A stretch of DNA of 64,000 nucleotides, taken from an uncultured Erysipelotrichaceae bacterium. GTDB taxonomy: Bacteria; Bacillota_I; Bacilli_A; RF39; UBA660. This document shows, piece after piece, positions 29,076 through 49,837 of this stretch. Position numbers and translations under genes: made by a program. The notes below the pieces were generated by a model, which saw nothing but the letters and a program-made list of their open reading frames with translations, was not told the DNA's origin and searched no databases. Each line of letters opens with the position of its first letter. Position 1 is the stretch's first letter. The stretch covers positions 2,109 through 66,108 of the forward strand of contig CACZXL010000001.1 of the NCBI GenBank assembly GCA_902785135.1. Direction: 5' to 3'.

Positions 29076-30728
29076 CTACTCTCCTATCTCTAATAGATCT
29101 TCAAATTCATTTTTTTCTGAAGAATCTTTATTATTTATTTTATTTATAATATCAGTTTCATCTAATATCTCTATATCTTCTTTATTTTTAATTCTTTTTA
29201 TATATTCAGGTCTCTTTTCATTCCAAGCATTTTCATTATAAAAACAAACCTTTAAATCTTTTGATAGTTTATTAATAAATAAATCTTCGATTTCTTTAAA
29301 ACTATCATATAATTCATTAAGAATATTATTATTAGATGCTGTTATTATTATACCATCTTTTGAACCAGCTTTAATAGAACAATCTAATAATAAATTAAAT
29401 ATTTTTCTTTCATCTAAATTATCTAAATTACTTTCTAAATTATTAAAGAATTCAACATATTCTTTAAGAGATTCTTTATCTGCTATTCTAAGTATATTAT
29501 TTAATCTTATATCCATTAACTCTTTATAATTGTCATATTTTTTAATATCTTCTTCTTTTTTTGGTTCTTCTTTTTTTATTTCTGTTTTATTATTATCTTC
29601 TTTTTCTATTTTAATAGACTTTTCTTCTTTTTTAGATTCTACTTCAATAATTTTTTTATCCTCAATACGAACATTTGTATTATTAAATATATCTAATAAT
29701 TTTATTATTAATAAATCAAAATAAATTTTCTTTTCTTTTATATTTCTAATGTAATTTATATAATCAGTAATTTGATAAATAATATTAATAGCGTTATCTT
29801 TGCCTACTTTATTTATCAAATCATTTTTATTATTAATTTGATATTCAATTAATGAATTCTTAATATATTTAATTATATCTTCACATACAAATATAAAGTC
29901 TTTACCTTCTTCATCTATCTTATCACTTAAATTAAAAGCCTTATCTATTTCATTATTATATATGTAATCAATAAATAAATTTATATCTTCATCACTTAAT
30001 CTACCATTTAATAATAAAACATCTTCTTTATTAATATTTCCATTGGTATATGAATTTAATTGATCTAATAATCCGATTCCATCTCGTAATCCACCATTAG
30101 AATTAATACAAACTTGTTCTAAAGCATCTTCAGATATTTTGATGTTTTCTTGATCACATATATATTGTATTTTTTCTTTCATTAAATTAACTGGAATTGA
30201 TTTAAATTCAAAACTTTGACATCTAGACATAATAGTTAATGGTACTTTTTGTGGTTCTGTTGTCGCAAGTATAAATATTACATGTCTTGGTGGTTCTTCT
30301 AATGTCTTTAATAAAGCATTAAAAGCTCCAGCAGATAACATATGTACCTCATCTATTATATATACTTTATATTTAGAAAATGTTGGCATTAATGTTACAT
30401 GATTTTTTATTTCACGAATTTCATCTACACCATTATTTGATGCAGCATCCATTTCAATAATATCTACATTTTCATTACTATTTGATAATTTACAAATTTC
30501 ACATTCTTCACAAGAATTACCATCTTTTGTATGTTCACAATTAATTGTTTTAGCAAAAATCTTAGCTATACTTGTTTTACCTGTTCCTCTAGGACCAATA
30601 AATAAATATGCATGAGTTAATTTGTTATTATTAATCGTATTTTTTAATGTTTGTACTACAATCTTTTGTCCGCAAACATCATCAAAAGTTTTTGGTCTAT
30701 ATTTTCTATATAATGCTTGGTATAACAT
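29076..30728 (-). CDS. dnaX: DNA polymerase III gamma/tau
   Basis: LYRKYRPKTF, GPRGTGKTS, EMDAASNNGVDEIR, IIDEVHML, LLKTLEEPP, SRC. Confidence 0.97.
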   Translation of the reverse strand: MLYQALYRKYRPKTFDDVCGQKIVVQTLKNTINNNKLTHAYLFIGPRGTGKTSIAKIFAKTINCEHTKDGNSCEECEICKLSNSNENVDIIEMDAASNNGVDEIREIKNHVTLMPTFSKYKVYIIDEVHMLSAGAFNALLKTLEEPPRHVIFILATTEPQKVPLTIMSRCQSFEFKSIPVNLMKEKIQYICDQENIKISEDALEQVCINSNGGLRDGIGLLDQLNSYTNGNINKEDVLLLNGRLSDEDINLFIDYIYNNEIDKAFNLSDKIDEEGKDFIFVCEDIIKYIKNSLIEYQINNKNDLINKVGKDNAINIIYQITDYINYIRNIKEKKIYFDLLIIKLLDIFNNTNVRIEDKKIIEVESKKEEKSIKIEKEDNNKTEIKKEEPKKEEDIKKYDNYKELMDIRLNNILRIADKESLKEYVEFFNNLESNLDNLDERKIFNLLLDCSIKAGSKDGIIITASNNNILNELYDSFKEIEDLFINKLSKDLKVCFYNENAWNEKRPEYIKRIKNKEDIEILDETDIINKINNKDSSEKNEFEDLLEIGE

Positions 30729-30803
30729 AATCATTTTCCTTTCATATTAATTATAACATATTTTATAAAAAATCTATATAAAATAAAGGTAAAATAAGTA
30801 TTA

Positions 30804-30819
30804 TGTTTCACGTGAAACA
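30804..30819. promoter_or_regulatory. parS site 1
   Basis: TGTTTCACGTGAAACA, perfect match to the Firmicutes parS consensus. Confidence 0.92.
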
Positions 30820-30848
30820 TACGTAATTTTATTTAATGATAATAAAAA

Positions 30849-30864
30849 TATTCCCCGGGAAATA
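30849..30864. promoter_or_regulatory. Noc-binding site (NBS) 1, one mismatch
   Basis: TATTCCCCGGGAAATA versus NBS TATTTCCCGGGAAATA. Confidence 0.75.
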
Positions 30865-30913
30865 TTTTTTACATAATTTTTAAATAATATTTTTAAAGTT
30901 AATAAAAAAACAA

Positions 30914-30929
30914 TGTTTCACGTGAAACA
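30914..30929. promoter_or_regulatory. parS site 2 (within a 30-bp perfect palindrome, 30907-30936)
   Basis: AAAACAA-TGTTTCACGTGAAACA-TTGTTTT. Confidence 0.92.
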
Positions 30930-30991
30930 TTGTTTTATTTTTATTAGTTTTAATATTGTATATAACTTTTTATAATAATTTTATTAAAAAA

Positions 30992-31007
30992 TATTTCCCG
31001 GGAAATA
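30992..31007. promoter_or_regulatory. Noc-binding site 2
   Basis: TATTTCCCGGGAAATA perfect. Confidence 0.85.
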
Positions 31008-31016
31008 TTTTTTTAA

Positions 31017-31032
31017 TGTTTCACGTGAAACA
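31017..31032. promoter_or_regulatory. parS site 3, abutting the tadA stop codon
   Basis: TGTTTCACGTGAAACA perfect. Confidence 0.92.
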
Positions 31033-31437
31033 TTAGCGTTTATTTTTAAAAAAATTACTTAATTTATTAGAAAATAAATTATTTTCTATATATTTATATT
31101 CAGGAGTTGATTCAGTTTTATAATTATTTTGTTTAGAATAAAAATATACATTTTTAATTCTTGATTTTTTTATTATACTTTTACACATTTCACATGGTTC
31201 TAAAGTAATATATAATTCACAATTATCTAATCTCCAATTATTTAGTTTTTTATTTGCTTTTTTTATAACATTTATCTCTGCATGATTTAATACTGAATTA
31301 TTTTTTTCTACTTTATTATAAGATTTTGCGATTATTTTATTATTATATACAATTAATGCCGCAACTGGTACTTCATTATGTTTTATAGCTTTATCCAATA
31401 GTTTATTTAATTCTTTAATAATAATATCTTGATTCAT
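31033..31437 (-). CDS. tadA: tRNA adenosine(34) deaminase
   Basis: EVPVAALIV, HAEINVI, LYITLEPCEMC; start ATG 31437 with SD AAGGAG. Confidence 0.9.
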   Translation of the reverse strand: MNQDIIIKELNKLLDKAIKHNEVPVAALIVYNNKIIAKSYNKVEKNNSVLNHAEINVIKKANKKLNNWRLDNCELYITLEPCEMCKSIIKKSRIKNVYFYSKQNNYKTESTPEYKYIENNLFSNKLSNFFKNKR

Positions 31438-31459
31438 AAAATCTCCTTGCATAAAAAAA

Positions 31460-31530
31460 GCACACACGAAAATTAAATGTTAAGGCTGCTATATTTCTAT
31501 CCTGACCTGGTTCCAAGTTTTTCGTTGTGC
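31460..31530 (-). ncRNA. ffs: Signal recognition particle RNA, minimal 4.5S-like form (about 71 nt)
   Basis: Minus strand GCACAACGAAAAACTTGGAACCAGGTCAGGATAGAAATATAGCAGCCTTAACATTTAATTTTCGTGTGTGC: helix-8 motif CAGG..GAAA..AGCAG, paired 5'/3' ends, then a T-run. Confidence 0.88.
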
Positions 31531-31536
31531 ATAAAT

Positions 31537-31565
31537 AATATACTATTTATTTAATAATAAGTCAA
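31537..31565 (-). promoter_or_regulatory. SigA promoter of ffs-tadA
   Basis: TTGACT-N17-TATATT, 6 nt upstream of the predicted SRP RNA 5' end. Confidence 0.7.
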
Positions 31566-31575
31566 ATTAAAACAA

Positions 31576-31591
31576 TGTTTCACGTGAAACA
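31576..31591. promoter_or_regulatory. parS site 4
   Basis: TGTTTCACGTGAAACA perfect; flanks identical to parS 2. Confidence 0.92.
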
Positions 31592-31623
31592 TTGTTAAAA
31601 ATATGTATTATTATTTAAAAAAA

Positions 31624-31639
31624 TATTTCCCGGGAAATA
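31624..31639. promoter_or_regulatory. Noc-binding site 3
   Basis: TATTTCCCGGGAAATA perfect. Confidence 0.85.
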
Positions 31640-31682
31640 TTTTTACTTTTATTATTAATAATTAATTGTAAAAAAAAGTATA

Positions 31683-31698
31683 TGTTTCACGTGAAACA
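31683..31698. promoter_or_regulatory. parS site 5 (extended palindrome, possibly also the gyrA terminator)
   Basis: AAGTATA-TGTTTCACGTGAAACA-TATACTT, 9 nt past the gyrA stop, T-run on the minus strand. Confidence 0.92.
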
Positions 31699-31707
31699 TA
31701 TACTTAA

Positions 31708-34212
31708 TTATTCTTCTGAATTGTTTTCTTCACCTATTTCAGTATTATTATTATCATTTGATATTTCATCTTGATTATCTTCTAGATCATCTCGCTTAGA
31801 TATTGATACAGTTGCTACTTTTTGTTCATCTTTTAATGTTATTAATCTAACACCTTGAGTTACTCTACTCATTTTTGATACTTGATCTAGTCTTATTTTT
31901 ATAACAATACCACTATCTGTAATAATAATTAAATCTGAATCTGGTTCAACTTTATTAATTGATACTAATGCACCATTCTTTTCAGTTATATTTAATCCTT
32001 TAACACCTTTACTTCCTCTATGTGTTAATCTATATTCACAAACATTTGTACGTTTTCCGTAACCTTTTTCAGTAATTATAAGGATTTCATCGTCTTCATT
32101 TATTACTGATGCACTAACACAAGAAGTTGATTCATCTATATCAATACCCTTAACACCACTAGCAGTTCTTCCTAGTATTCTGATTTCATCTTCATTAAAT
32201 TTAACCATTCTACCATTTGAAGCTCCTATTAAAATTTGATCATTACCATTTGTTAAGAATACTGCTAATAATTCATCATTTTCTTTTAATCCAATAGCTA
32301 TCTTACCACTTACTCTTATATTTTCAAATTCAGAAATAGATGTTCTCTTAACTAATCCTCTCTTAGTAACGAAAGTAATTAATTTATTTTCAATACCTTC
32401 TTCTACTCTAACAGGAAGAATAGCTTTAACAAATTCATCTTTTTCAATTGGTAATAAGTTTATTATTGGTAATCCTTTAGCTTGTCTACTAAATTCTGGT
32501 ACTTCATAACCCTTTATTCTATATACTTTACCTTTATTAGTAAAGAATAATACATGATCATGAGTCTTTAATGTTACCATTTGTTCAACAAAGTCTTCTT
32601 CATTAGTAGCCATACCTTTAACACCAACTCCACCTTTGTTTTGAACTTTATATGTATCTATTGGTAATCTCTTAATATAACCTTTATTTGTTAAATTAAT
32701 AATTATATCTTCTACTGGAATTAATGATTCATCTTCAATATAATCAATAGCAGTCATATCAATCTTAGTTCTTCTATCATCAGAATATTTATCCTTAATT
32801 TCTAGTAATTCTTGTTTAATAATAGCTAGAACTTTTTCTTCACTTGCTAAAATAGATTTATATTCTTTAATTTTTTCTAGTAAATCAGCAAGTTCTGCTT
32901 CAATCTTATCTCTTTCTAATCCAGTTAATCTTCTTAACTTCATTTCTAAGATAGCATCACATTGTATTTCTGTTAAAGCATAATTACTCATTAATTTATC
33001 TTTTGCTTCTTGATCTGTCTTAGAACCTCTAATTATTTTAATAACTTCATCTATATGATCTAATGCAATTTTTAAACCTTCTAAAATATGTACTTTATCT
33101 TCTGCTTTCTTTAAATCATATTGTGTTCTTCTAATAATTATTTCTTTTTGATAATCAATATATTTAGAAATAATATCCTTTAAACCAAGAGTTTTTGGAA
33201 CTCCTTTATCAAGCATTAAGAATATTACACCAAAATTCTTTTGAAAATCAGTATGTTTATATAAATTATTTAATACTACTTGTGCATTTGCGTCCTTTTT
33301 TAATGTAATAGTGATTTTTACACCATCTTTTAAATCAGTATGATAATCTGCTATTCCATCAATAGTTTTATTGTGGACAAGTTCAGCAACCTTATTTTTT
33401 AATATTTGAGTATTAACACCATAAGGTACTTCATCAACAATAATATAATGTTTACCATCTTTTTCTTCAATAGATGCCTTACTTCTTATAGTTATTGTTC
33501 CTCTACCTGTCTCATATGCATTTTTTATACCACTATTTCCTAGGATAATACCACCTGTTGGAAAATCTGGACCTTTAACATATTGCATTAATCCCATTGT
33601 ATCTATATCAGGATTATCTATATAAGCTACACAACCATCTATTACTTCACCTAAGTTATGTGGTGGAATATTTGTTGCCATACCAACAGCGATACCCATA
33701 GTACCATTAACTAAAATATTAGGAAATCTTGATGGAAGAACTGCTGGTTCTTTTTCAGATTCATCAAAGTTTGGAATCATATCAACAGTTTCTTTTTGTA
33801 TATCTCTTAATAATTCTAATGAAATTTTAGATAGTCTTGCTTCAGTATAACGCATTGCTGCTGCACCATAACCTTCAATATTACCAAAGTTACCATGTCC
33901 ATCTACTAAACAATTTCTATAACTAAAATCTTGTGCCATGTGTACCATAGCTTCATAAATTGATGAGTCACCATGTGGGTGATATTTACCCATAACATCT
34001 CCGACTATTCTAGCCGACTTTTTATGAGGTTTATCTGGAGTATAACCTGATTCATACATTGACCATAAAATACGTCTGTGAACTGGTTTTAAACCATCTC
34101 TAAGGTCAGGTAATGCTCTTGCTACTATAACACTCATTGAATATTCTAGGAATGAGGTTTCAATTTCTTTAACTATATTATTTTCTTGTAATCTATCTCT
34201 ACTGTGATCCAT
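31708..34212 (-). CDS. gyrA: DNA gyrase subunit A
   Basis: [34 protein letters not shown], GyrA box QNKGGVG. Confidence 0.98.
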
Positions 34213-37368: not shown

Positions 37369-37821
37369 TTATTCAGCAGCATTTATTCTTTTTCTTAAAA
37401 CTGATTCTAATTTAGTAGCTCTTAATACTTGATTATCAAAAGATCCAAATGAAATATTTAATTTAATTTTCTTATTATTATCAAATAATAACTCAGTTTT
37501 TCCATTTTTACTTTCATAATCTTTAATATTATTTAGACCTATCCATACACAATCTAATAATCTTGGTGAAGAAGTAGGAAAATATATTAAATTCTTACTT
37601 TCTTCTATAATTATAGGAGCTTTATGAGATATGCCTATTAGTTTTTTAGTTCCTTCATGTCTTCCATTATATGAACTTCCAAAATATTCACAACTATCTT
37701 CTATTATTTCCATAACAGGTTTATTAACTATAAAAATATTATTCCTTTCTATTATTTTTGTTTCATTTTCTGATATTGGTATAAGAGCTAAAGTATCACA
37801 GTTTACTTCATAAGAAATCAT
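37369..37821 (-). CDS. comK: Competence transcription factor ComK family
   Basis: YEVN..TLA, SCEYFGSSYNGRHEGT..ISHKAPII..IYFPTSSP..CVWI, closely matching Bacillus ComK; start ATG 37821 (SD GGGGG). Confidence 0.88.
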   Translation of the reverse strand: MISYEVNCDTLALIPISENETKIIERNNIFIVNKPVMEIIEDSCEYFGSSYNGRHEGTKKLIGISHKAPIIIEESKNLIYFPTSSPRLLDCVWIGLNNIKDYESKNGKTELLFDNNKKIKLNISFGSFDNQVLRATKLESVLRKRINAAE

Positions 37822-37924
37822 AATTATTCCCCCTAACATTAATTGATTTCTATATATTATTTTCTCCAAAAAGAAAACAATACCCCCTATTTTTCACAAA
37901 ATAATTAAAAAAAATGTAGATTTT

Positions 37925-40694: not shown

Positions 40695-40983
40695 TTTTCA
40701 ACAAAAAACAGAGAAAAAAGTTATACACAAACGATCTCCACAAGTTTTTCCACTTTTGAATTATTATAAAATATATTTAAAATTGTGTTTTCCACATTTT
40801 CCACAAATTTTATAATCCACTTTATACAAATCCACAATTATTTATTTTCCACAATTTTGTGTACAATTGTTGAAAATATTTATAGCTTTATATTATATAT
40901 AAAAAATTAAAAGTTTTCCACAAAAACTGTTAAAAAAATGTATTAAATTTTAATTTTGTTAAAAAGTGATTGACTTATCAACA
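40695..40983. other. oriC DnaA-box cluster (dnaA-rpmH spacer)
   Basis: TTATACACA at 40721; TTTTCCACA at 40788, 40797, 40845, 40914; several 1-2-mismatch boxes (40695, 40746, 40822, 40828, 40975); coding-strand switch here. Confidence 0.9.
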
Positions 40984-45421: not shown

Positions 45422-45479
45422 TACTATTTTTCTTTTTAAAATTATTGTGTTAAAATACTATTTAAATAGAGGTGATATT

Positions 45480-46190
45480 ATGTCTAAAATAGAATTAGTA
45501 AACGCCTACAAAAGAACTACAGAAAATGATATTAGAAAGGATAATTATTTTTTTGAAAGATTTTTATCATTAAATAAAAGAAATCTTATAAATAGATCTT
45601 TAAATTTTAATGAAGAAACTAATGAATATGTATATGAAGGATATGGAGAACTATTGATTTTACCAGATGGTTATTTTCCAGTAACAAGTGATTACGTAGA
45701 TAATGTATATATTTCGGATTCTTCTGATGTTTTATATAAATTAGTATATTATCCTGGTTTAGAAAAAGAAAATGAAGAGGAAATGGATACAACATCAGTA
45801 ATTACTAAAATTTCTAAACAAAAAATATACTTAGAAAGAGAATATATTTTAGAAAGATCATCATTTTTAACTGAAGAAAAATATGGAGAACATAATCCAA
45901 ATCAGTTATTATGTGCTTTAGAAAATATTGAGAGTGGAAATTATACTTCATTTACTAATAAGGAACATGCAAGAGAAGATTTAAGACAAGTTCCACCAGA
46001 AGAAATTAATCAATTAACAAGACAAATATTATATAAATATGATTTAATTAATAAAAATTCATATATAAATGATTCTGATGTTAGAAAATTATTTGTAACT
46101 TATATTAAAGAAAAGGTAAGAAAAGAAAAAATGGATAGGGTTAAAAATAATGTTTTATCTTTAACTGATTTATTAACAAATATGGATTAA
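45480..46190 (+). CDS. Hypothetical protein
   Basis: ORF of about 236 aa with SD GAGGTG and a downstream hairpin; no family recognised. Confidence 0.75.
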   Translation: MSKIELVNAYKRTTENDIRKDNYFFERFLSLNKRNLINRSLNFNEETNEYVYEGYGELLILPDGYFPVTSDYVDNVYISDSSDVLYKLVYYPGLEKENEEEMDTTSVITKISKQKIYLEREYILERSSFLTEEKYGEHNPNQLLCALENIESGNYTSFTNKEHAREDLRQVPPEEINQLTRQILYKYDLINKNSYINDSDVRKLFVTYIKEKVRKEKMDRVKNNVLSLTDLLTNMD

Positions 46191-48856: not shown

Positions 48857-49837
48857 ATGAATAATATGGAAAAAGAAATTATTGAAGTATCTTTAGATGA
48901 TATTATTCCTAACCGTTTTCAACCTAGATTGTCTTTTGATGAAGATGCATTAAATGAATTAGCTAAATCTATAAGACAACATGGTATTATTCAACCATTA
49001 GTACTTAGAAAGGTTGGAAATAAATATGAAATAATTGCGGGTGAAAGAAGATATAAAGCTTCTTATATCGCAGGTCTTACAAAAGTTCCAGCAATTGTTA
49101 TTGATTTAAATGATAATGAATCTGCTGAAGTAGCAATTGTAGAAAATATTCAAAGAAAAAATTTATCTCCAATAGAAGAAGCAAAGTCTTATAAAAAATT
49201 ATTAGATAGAGGTTATTTAACACAAGATGAATTAGCTTCTAGAATGGGTAAAACTCAAGGAGCTATATCTAATAAACTTAGATTATTAAATTTATCTACA
49301 GAAGTGCAAGATGCTTTATTAAATAATCAAATTAGTGAAAGACATGCAAGAAGTTTATTAAAAATAGAAAATGAAGATGAACAAATAGAGATACTAAATA
49401 GAATTATTACAGGAAGATTAAATGTTAGAGATACAGACAATCTTATAAATTCATATATCAATAATGAAGAATATATTCCGGTTGCACCTCATAAAGGTTT
49501 TGGTTTAGGTAAAGGTTCTTCAAGTAGTAGTTCAATTGATTTTAATACATTTTTTGATACAAATAATGAGGATAATACACCATTAACAATTGAAGACAAA
49601 GTATATCCTTCTATAGAAGATAAAACATATCTAGAAATAGAGGATAAAGTATATCCTGCAATAGAAACAGAAGAAACACTATTATTAGAGGATGAATCTA
49701 CTGAATCTAAAAAAGATGTTCTTCAAAGAAAAATAAAGAATTTTATTGAAGAATTAAAAGCTGAAGGATATGATGCAACTTATGATAATTATGAATTTGA
49801 TAGAATATTTGAATTTATAATAAAAGTACAAAAATAA
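48857..49837 (+). CDS. noc: ParB-family CTPase of the Noc (nucleoid occlusion) type
   Basis: PNRFQPR, IIAGERRYKA, ENIQR; HTH region GKTQGAISNKLRLL..ISERHARSLL has Noc-type Q/K/R residues (Spo0J has SRPHIANH..MGHGR); follows rsmG. Confidence 0.8.
   Translation: MNNMEKEIIEVSLDDIIPNRFQPRLSFDEDALNELAKSIRQHGIIQPLVLRKVGNKYEIIAGERRYKASYIAGLTKVPAIVIDLNDNESAEVAIVENIQRKNLSPIEEAKSYKKLLDRGYLTQDELASRMGKTQGAISNKLRLLNLSTEVQDALLNNQISERHARSLLKIENEDEQIEILNRIITGRLNVRDTDNLINSYINNEEYIPVAPHKGFGLGKGSSSSSSIDFNTFFDTNNEDNTPLTIEDKVYPSIEDKTYLEIEDKVYPAIETEETLLLEDESTESKKDVLQRKIKNFIEELKAEGYDATYDNYEFDRIFEFIIKVQK
49589..49672 (+). repeat. 24-nt tandem repeat (IEDKxYxx, three copies plus a partial) in the Noc C-terminal linker
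   Basis: IEDKVYPS-IEDKTYLE-IEDKVYPA-IETE. Confidence 0.8.

Follow-up and report, generated by a model that had tools for sequence, protein, structure and literature searches.

ParB and Noc form the textbook pair for a paralogue that changed both its specificity and its function, as well as for cytidine triphosphate (CTP) switches acting on DNA; so far they have been studied as separate systems, ParB with its parS sites at an origin centromere and Noc with its Noc-binding sites (NBSs) as dispersed membrane tethers. What does it mean, then, if both site types lie interleaved at one place close to a replication origin, and which proteins read them? This question is raised by a stretch of 64,000 nucleotides (referred to as the window) from an uncultured Erysipelotrichaceae bacterium (GenBank assembly GCA_902785135.1, contig CACZXL010000001.1, positions 2,109 to 66,108 of the forward strand). 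The original prediction, which was made from the sequence alone, had described five parS (P) and three NBS (N) palindromes in the order P-N-P-N-P ... P-N-P, forming two mixed clusters that flank tadA and ffs near the replication origin, oriC. A motif scan agreed with this description in number, position, and order, and the motifs are identical to the recognition sequences that PMC7383237 gives for ParB and Noc.

The five parS copies (P1 to P5, Table 1) are perfect matches to TGTTTCACGTGAAACA and conform to the definition of parS as the 16-bp palindrome TGTTNCACGTGAAACA; their number in the window remains five if up to two mismatches are allowed, with 0.01 expected from shuffled sequences. The NBSs were judged by the palindrome TATTTCCCGGGAAATA with its core ATTTCCCGGGAAAT, to which N2 and N3 correspond perfectly, while N1 (TATTCCCC...) carries a single mismatch, which is taken as derived, given that three close relatives have a perfect site at the orthologous position. 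Allowing up to three mismatches still yields three NBSs, compared to 0.44 expected, a number that none of the shuffles reached, and the initial observation of no other NBS in the 64 kb was borne out; the remainder of the window contains no further parS either. Cluster 1 occupies the spacer between dnaX and tadA, and cluster 2 occupies that between ffs and gyrA. A group of DnaA-box-like motifs coincides with a sign change of the GC skew at approximately 40.7 to 41.2 kb and is taken as oriC; with a distance of 9.0 to 9.9 kb from it, the arrays are origin proximal. With the two clusters composed as they are, the sites would alternate strictly by chance with a probability of about 1/30, and the alternation, taken alone, is suggestive but not decisive: the weight of evidence for the mixing of parS and NBS lies with the relatives, not with the alternation in the window. 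A tandem-repeat nature of the window's arrays was ruled out, as Tandem Repeats Finder reported only short AT-rich repeats.

A set of 185,579 species-representative genomes was scanned for an exact parS separated by a gap of 9 to 39 bp from an exact NBS. Such close pairs were present at at least 119 genome loci and, among the matches listed, 118 of 119 represent the same locus, with the order gyrA-(ffs)-sites-tadA-sites-dnaX-ybaB-recR-holB, which is shared by more than 100 related species. Save for three close relatives, the proteins encoded at the 118 loci are 37 to 75% identical to those of the window. The clade comprises low-GC metagenome-assembled genomes (MAGs) of uncultured Bacilli, labeled Bacilli, Erysipelotrichaceae, "Mycoplasma," "Tenericutes," Clostridium sp. 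CAG:710, Ca. Onthousia, or Ca. Scybalousia, with a few labels evidently wrong (e.g., Muribaculaceae). At NCBI, Ca. Onthousia is placed no more precisely than "Bacilli incertae sedis," and Ca. Scybalousia is a homonym listed under Bacteroidales. The gene content of the clade would fit the uncultured Bacilli orders RFN20, RF39, and ML615J-28 as published; the contigs of the window and of the relatives derive from gut metagenomes. The sole listed locus outside the clade, L004, belongs to a Clostridia MAG with 41% GC, where positions 1 to 560 mix sites in the order N-N-p-N-P within a noncoding stretch with a 55-bp repeat, adjoining a lipoate ligase gene upstream of a glycine cleavage operon. It may be an independent occurrence of parS-NBS mixing and, as an isolated second context, is uninformative.

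With up to one mismatch allowed, the at least 119 loci and the window together contain 469 parS and 336 NBSs, nearly all of which are located in the gyrA-tadA and tadA-dnaX spacers; the related loci account for 380 perfect parS copies, and complete intervals have a median of four parS and two NBSs. Among the 598 neighboring pairs within clusters, 423 are of unlike type (PN or NP) versus 312 ± 10 after permutation of the labels, the others being PP (148) and NN (27). N-P neighbors are at most 60 bp apart in 289 of 471 cases and P-P neighbors in 28 of 171 (among the matches listed). Because this sample had been selected for one close pair per locus, the adjacency test was redone on loci retrieved by an NBS only; here unlike adjacencies amounted to 143 of 230 versus 111 ± 6, which was reached in 0 of 5000 permutations. 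A less biased sample of 25 complete gyrA-dnaX intervals comprised 16 with both site types, four with parS only, and five with NBSs only. Conservation of the alternation in relatives, as originally proposed, thus stands in the form of an excess of unlike neighbors, whereas strict alternation is not universal.

In alignments with the closest relatives, parS and NBS appear as invariant islands, and the spacers differ in sequence, length, and copy number. Many relatives possess strict tandem P-N units, such as six repeats of an 84-bp unit in L031 and nine of a 75-bp unit in L054. The copy number of the arrays is highly dynamic, as illustrated by these tandem units (L031:1723-2210 and L054:7098-7750), and L091 features a run of parS made from a 37-bp tandem unit (L091:2600-3010). 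Conservation extends beyond the 16-mers: parS is enlarged to A-parS-T (A at position -1, T at +1) in 97 to 98% of 379 copies, and NBSs are flanked by AAA(T/A) and (A/T)TTT in 83 to 89% of 293 copies, those in coding DNA included; in the window, extended sites span positions 30803 to 30820 (parS) and 30988 to 31011 (NBS). These flanks suggest extended recognition or a DNA-shape requirement in the clade. The P-N distances showed bumps near 26, 35 to 36, and 48 bp and no clean helical period, in a histogram truncated by the search pattern, and no relevant extra genes were found within the arrays of the relatives.

When metagenomes were scanned with only the extended NBS (AAWTATTTCCCGGGAAATAWTT, conserved flanks required), at least 120 loci were retrieved. 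Among the matches listed, 117 of these are low in GC, and 101 of the 117 have protein matches to the stretch from holB to argS that surrounds oriC, while five more match the mfd/pth region (16 to 27 kb in the window), which places about 106 in the 64-kb origin region; the remainder are four contigs shorter than 1.6 kb and only seven longer contigs (at least 3 kb) in unrelated contexts. The NBSs of the clade are concentrated within a few tens of kilobases around oriC and are not dispersed; the canonical dispersal over the origin-proximal half to two-thirds of the chromosome was not seen with the extended-flank pattern among these matches. In the window species, all three NBSs found in the window and about 23 kb of flanks lie in the arrays. 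The notion that NBSs are confined to the origin therefore holds for the region, not for the arrays themselves: relatives carry recurrent lone NBSs in the dnaX linker, between recF and gyrB, jag and mnmE, and mnmE and mnmG, and beyond recR/holB, and parS almost never occurs outside the arrays. In approximately 26 related species, a full 24-bp NBS (AAATTATTTCCCGGGAAATAATTT) is located inside dnaX, in a variable linker where it encodes E-I-I-S-R-E-I-I-S (e.g., L016:2298, L036:1960, and L008:2700); the palindrome appears to be conserved at the DNA level within the gene. The dnaX gene of the window contains no NBS.

The presumed reader of the NBSs is a ParB-family protein, here named NocL, whose gene is located directly downstream of rsmG (gidB), the position typical of noc. 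NocL combines the domains PF02195 (ParB_N) and PF17762 (HTH_ParB) and has the CTP-motif residues GERR (as GERRYK) and ENxQR (as ENIQR), both invariant across orthologues. Among solved structures, Noc was the best match with 210 bits versus about 170 for Spo0J/ParB. The best NCBIfam model was the Noc model TIGR04285, with 280 bits for NocL and 284 bits for its orthologues in L185 and L247, all below the cutoff of 315 bits. At specificity positions 173, 179, 184, and 201, NocL features Q134, K140, N145, and R162 (QKNR). Q173, K179, and N184 are present in all 121 close orthologues and R201 in 120 of them; in a family sample of 150 cluster representatives at 50% identity, Q173 and R201 occur in all 83 that were parsable by residue pattern. 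According to PMC7383237, Q173 recognizes adenine 1 of the NBS, with R201 recognizing cytosine 6, and these two residues plus one lysine at position 179 or 184 suffice for NBS specificity, whereas parS-specific variants always keep R173 and dual-specificity variants mostly have T or S at position 201; the accessible part of the supplementary text of this work has no experimental entry for QKNR. The prediction that the window encodes a Noc-type reader was thereby supported. Conversely, the proposal that the locus represents a retained intermediate of the parS-to-NBS specificity switch found no support, as neither site type deviates from its full consensus and the Q173/R201 signature for NBS is complete in the reader.

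At its N terminus, NocL departs from the canonical protein. Canonical Noc possesses a 10-residue amphipathic membrane-targeting helix and a helix α2, both of them present in every Noc homologue examined so far; deletion of the first 10 residues abolishes the activity of Noc in nucleoid occlusion. NocL starts about five residues ahead of the core N-terminal domain, with residue 6 aligning to residue 26 of Noc from G. thermoleovorans; no in-frame start is present upstream, and the short N terminus is common to 120 orthologues and the inspected family representatives. Neither the membrane-targeting helix (about residues 1 to 10) nor α2 was found in NocL, which judging from its sequence is in effect a natural N-Δ26 Noc and appears unable to use the known membrane mechanism of Noc. 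With respect to an alternative membrane anchor, a hydrophobic segment was detected in only one of the 150 representatives, and the AlphaFold2 model contains no linker helix. One family representative of 242 residues, P0153, ends in a strongly hydrophobic 19-mer (IGLFVIFCLVIAIPRLIFV) that replaces the usual C-terminal domain and may be either a membrane anchor or a frameshift artifact.

The AlphaFold2 model of NocL (predicted template modeling score of 0.37) features the N-terminal and DNA-binding domains at residues 9 to 202, with block means of the predicted local distance difference test of approximately 56 to 86, followed by a disordered acidic linker (about residues 211 to 283) and a small C-terminal domain composed of a helix and a β-hairpin. 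In the family the linker is long (median of about 208 residues) and enriched in E, N, P, S, and D. For the L185 orthologue, a weak alignment links the last 45 residues to the final part of the Noc profile (positions 211 to 255; E value of 0.002), and the C terminus of the window's NocL gave no match to the C-terminal part of this profile. Because it lacks the helix and scores below the curated cutoff, both of which define Noc, NocL is described here as a Noc-type, NBS-specific ParB paralogue and not as Noc. The suggestion of a "repurposed Noc" is plausible, given that NocL lacks the membrane-targeting helix needed for nucleoid occlusion.

As for the reader of parS, the low-GC metagenome contig L185 encodes, after rsmG and a NocL of the same architecture (QKSR), Soj and a canonical ParB (RMSG), which carries the usual N-terminal ParA-interaction peptide and belongs to a large family of 292- to 295-residue orthologues. 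One of these, P0363, is encoded on contig NODE_232_length_88956 (L247), with the order dnaA, rnpA-yidC-jag-mnmE-mnmG-rsmG-NocL-ParA-ParB, and farther on ychF-rpsF-ssb-rpsR. Since the array locus L050 is part of the same contig, at least one array-bearing genome encodes both readers and ParA; ParA adjoins NocL and ParB in L185, L183, and L247. In the window, a phmmer search with NocL against all open reading frames (ORFs) in six frames returned only the self-match and hence no second ParB-family ORF, and tblastn with the ParB and Soj of the clade yielded nothing in the window lineage (the window and all loci). No ParA was detected in the window by tblastn with the relative's Soj or among its about 50 domain-annotated genes, and the extensions to the right (rplJ-rpoBC-tilS) and to the left (secA, helix-turn-helix proteins) contained no ParA, ParB, parS, or NBS. 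Throughout the window's sub-lineage, the order is rsmG, NocL, and a gene for a penicillin-binding protein (PBP). As this sub-lineage shows perfect conservation of the parS copies with their A/T flanks and a continuing expansion of these copies, we infer that ParB is encoded elsewhere in the window genome. The search for spo0J and soj that had been suggested at the outset was hence successful in a related array-bearing genome and left the ParB of the window genome unlocated.

We consider it moderately probable that the two clusters make up a composite zone near the origin at which two orthogonal DNA clamps, paralogous to each other and both CTP dependent, are loaded. Canonical ParB (R173/G201 type) would nucleate on the parS copies, and the Noc-type paralogue (Q173/K179/R201 type) would nucleate on the NBS copies, which lie 9 to 60 bp from a parS; each dimer would bind CTP at its own site, close into a clamp, and slide onto the flanks, by analogy to ParB and Noc of B. 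subtilis, for which CTP binding, clamp closure, and sliding have been shown. Multiple copies of the sites would raise the loading rate, interleaving would guarantee the presence of both complexes on one piece of DNA, and both proteins might coat several kilobases around gyrA-dnaX, probably reaching oriC at a distance of 9 kb. Since NocL lacks a membrane helix and its sites are focused at the origin, a role as a genome-wide nucleoid-occlusion tether is less likely than an origin-specific one. The Noc-type protein could assist the partition complex specifically at the origin, in organization, positioning, or initiation control, acting through its long acidic linker and its C-terminal domain; control of replication initiation has been reported for Noc of S. 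aureus.

Several points weigh against such a loading zone. Binding at the arrays, CTP-dependent sliding, co-occupancy, and any downstream function are deduced from sequence features, and the sequence is compatible with readers that cooperate, ignore, or obstruct each other. A canonical ParB of the window genome was not found in the approximately 87 kb around oriC formed by the window and its extensions of about 23 kb, and in the sub-lineage of the window (NocL identity of at least approximately 67%) the Noc-type gene is followed by the PBP gene, not by soj-spo0J. Nine of the 25 less biased intervals hold a single site type, so that mixing is the rule but not universal. Furthermore, tandem P-N duplications and the inclusion of related genomes inflate the adjacency counts, as the events are not independent, and dispersed NBSs with other flanks could have escaped the extended-flank scan.

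The close packing of the sites can also be read as antagonism, with the readers obstructing each other instead of co-assembling. Many N-P pairs start 22 to 40 bp from one another, leaving 6 to 24 bp between the sites, an N is nearly always flanked by P with NN neighbors being rare (27 of 598, among the matches listed), and the same DNA is predicted to carry both proteins as sliding clamps. Site-bound dimers of the Noc-type protein, lying between parS copies, would then block the path of sliding ParB clamps and so confine or slow them, or vice versa, thereby shaping a compact partition complex or switching it off in some states, e.g., during sporulation. We regard this insulating arrangement as unlikely, if still worth considering: the lone NBSs across the origin region of the relatives would not be explained by an insulation of parS, and ParB-family dimers move off their nucleation sites once CTP is bound and would thus be poor permanent roadblocks. 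The failure to find ParB and ParA in the window and its extensions, together with the rsmG-NocL-PBP order without soj-spo0J across the sub-lineage, would be accounted for if this sub-lineage had lost both proteins and the Noc-type protein or an unrelated factor recognized both palindromes. A single reader of this kind is very improbable, however, as the combination of Q173 and R201 is NBS specific, R173 is retained in every parS-specific variant, and most dual-specificity variants feature T or S at position 201 (PMC7383237). Moreover, Noc of B. subtilis does not load on parS, perfectly conserved and expanding parS copies with A/T flanks imply a dedicated reader, and the stretch inspected for ParB covers only about 87 kb of the genome.

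That the palindromes matter chiefly as terminators or as RNA or DNA structures among gyrA, ffs, tadA, and dnaX is hardly credible. All sites do extend as longer palindromes, by about 3 bp on average versus 0.55 in controls, with 25% of the parS copies extending by at least 5 bp, and P5, P2, and P4 are terminator-like, P5 being located just behind the gyrA stop codon with a predicted hairpin of -14.4 kcal/mol and a U-run. Hairpins do not, however, need exact parS and NBS consensus 16-mers in more than 100 diverged species; the extension consists mostly of the conserved flanks and not of variable compensating pairs, of the eight hairpins in the window, five have low predicted stability (-6.7 to -8.2 kcal/mol), and the dnaX-internal NBS copies keep the full 24-bp consensus. 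Because a hairpin role is unable to explain the conserved exact 16-mers, termination is viewed as a secondary use of some copies, and the loading zone for two clamps remains our preferred explanation.

If there is such a two-clamp centromere, its origin has to be considered as well. It could represent the ancestral state of Noc, with a helix-less and origin-restricted protein: after duplication of parB, NBSs would have arisen by two base changes per half-site in duplicated centromeric parS, this change of sites within the centromere would have resulted in the interleaved arrays and in a second origin-loaded CTP clamp, and Noc would have gained the membrane helix and the dispersed sites later, in Bacillales and Staphylococcales, becoming a nucleoid-occlusion factor. 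We rate this scenario as distinctly unlikely; a secondary loss of the helix and of the dispersed sites during genome reduction is more likely.

The features of the locus are compiled in Table 1. The G+C content of the window is about 24%. To the left of oriC, all on the minus strand, are dnaA, dnaN, comK, recF, gyrB, gyrA, cluster 2, ffs, tadA, cluster 1, dnaX, ybaB, recR, and holB; to the right are rnpA, yidC, jag, mnmE, gpsA, an uncharacterized ORF, mnmG, rsmG, and the ParB-family gene, on which a downstream gene for a class A PBP converges. The listed tadA ORF extends to a GTG at position 31467, the ATG with an upstream AGGAG being the likelier start, and a promoter-like motif for ffs (TTGACT-17-TATATT) is located directly downstream of P4.

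Table 1. Coordinates of parS and NBS copies, the NBS reader gene, and neighboring features in the window
Feature	Coordinates	Strand	Remarks
dnaX	29076..30734	-	Borders cluster 1
parS P1	30804..30819		Perfect 16-mer; 20-bp palindrome including flanks
NBS N1	30849..30864		One mismatch (TATTCCCCGGGAAATA); ortholog perfect in relatives
parS P2	30914..30929		Perfect; inside 30-bp perfect palindrome 30907-30936, terminator-like
NBS N2	30992..31007		Perfect; A6/T7 flanks
parS P3	31017..31032		Perfect; adjoins tadA stop codon; 9 bp from N2
tadA	31033..31437	-	tRNA adenosine deaminase; between both clusters
ffs	31451..31536	-	Small signal recognition particle RNA
parS P4	31576..31591		Perfect; 26-bp palindrome (31571-31596)
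NBS N3	31624..31639		Perfect
parS P5	31683..31698		Perfect; inside 30-bp palindrome 31676-31705, 2 nt past gyrA stop
gyrA	31708..34212	-	Borders cluster 2
DnaA-box cluster	40721..40983	+	Six DnaA-box-like 9-mers between dnaA and rpmH; taken as oriC
NocL gene	48857..49837	+	Noc-type ParB-family protein, 326 aa; directly after rsmG

P5, P2, and P4 are situated within perfect palindromes of 26 to 30 bp that are followed by T-runs on the transcribed strand (for P2, an RNA hairpin of -13.4 kcal/mol and a U-run; for P5, a U-run on the minus strand), and these copies may also serve as intrinsic terminators. The presence of MreB, SpoIID, SpoIIR, YabP, SpoVG, and a PBP points to a walled and probably spore-forming organism. 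A ComK-family gene (positions 37369 to 37869, minus strand) lies between dnaN and recF within the otherwise classical dnaA-dnaN-recF-gyrB-gyrA block, and it is identically placed in every related locus covering the dnaN-recF interval. The 247-residue ORF between gpsA and mnmG (45447 to 46190, plus strand) has no Pfam or NCBIfam match; at this position, relatives L250 and L252 encode a sigma-70-like protein of 389 to 409 residues (Sigma70_r2/r4), of which the window's ORF may be a truncated or highly diverged copy. At positions 5080 to 7110 (minus strand), a gene for a 412-residue AgrB-domain protein adjoins one for a 237-residue GHKL (HATPase_c_5) protein; this agr-like pair may serve quorum sensing in what is a reduced genome. 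In the close relative L252, a gene for a protein of 7562 residues with many Flg_new and DUF285 repeats starts about 10 kb from the Noc-type gene (L252:20531-20972).

In full-text searches and in the key papers, neither arrays with parS and NBS interleaved or adjacent, nor NBSs restricted to the origin, nor a helix-less Noc family were found described. The parts, namely, parS, NBS, ParB, and a relative of Noc, are known, and the arrangement and the protein variant appear to be new. A large branch of uncultured Bacilli interleaves both site types at one conserved origin-proximal locus, which raises the questions whether two orthogonal CTP clamps share the DNA, whether they cooperate or collide, what role a helix-less Noc plays, and whether this is the ancestral state. 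The arrays offer a natural substrate, ready for use, to the assays of clamp loading and roadblocks that exist in the field, and annotation should set the NocL family, at NCBI termed "ParB/RepB/Spo0J family partition protein," apart from ParB and Noc.

The locus shares features with four groups of known systems. With ParB/Spo0J-parS, for which B. subtilis is the model, it has in common the identical 16-bp palindrome, several copies within about 10 kb of oriC, and, in a related array-bearing genome, canonical ParB (R173/G201) and ParA in the order noc-soj-spo0J. In contrast to that system, parS is packed here into one or two gyrA-dnaX spacers and interleaved with the sites of a second ParB-family protein, it has an additional A/T flank conserved to 97 to 98%, and in the sub-lineage of the window, whose ParB was not located, soj-spo0J is not beside noc. 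With Noc-NBS of B. subtilis and S. aureus, it shares the identical NBS consensus and, in NocL, a closest relative of Noc that is encoded after rsmG, has the Noc specificity residues, and in one related genome aligns weakly with its C-terminal domain to the end of the Noc model. However, NocL is devoid of the amphipathic helix and α2 and scores below the TIGR04285 cutoff, the linker of its family is long, acidic, and proline rich, and the NBSs of the clade are few, located at oriC, and mostly paired with parS. RacA-ram of B. subtilis and RicO-ricS of S. aureus (bioRxiv 10.64898/2026.03.06.710092, as far as the accessible part of the preprint goes) likewise combine a dedicated DNA-binding protein with sites near oriC, alongside ParB/SMC; unlike NocL, in which no anchor is detectable, they have a membrane or pole anchor and are not ParB-family CTP clamps, and a functional analogy is speculative. 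In mParSpot (PMC11109969, in its accessible part), ParB-parS and Noc-NBS are used together as non-cross-reacting pairs of site and reader; whereas that system is artificial and operates in human cells, the window presents a natural and conserved bacterial juxtaposition of the two.

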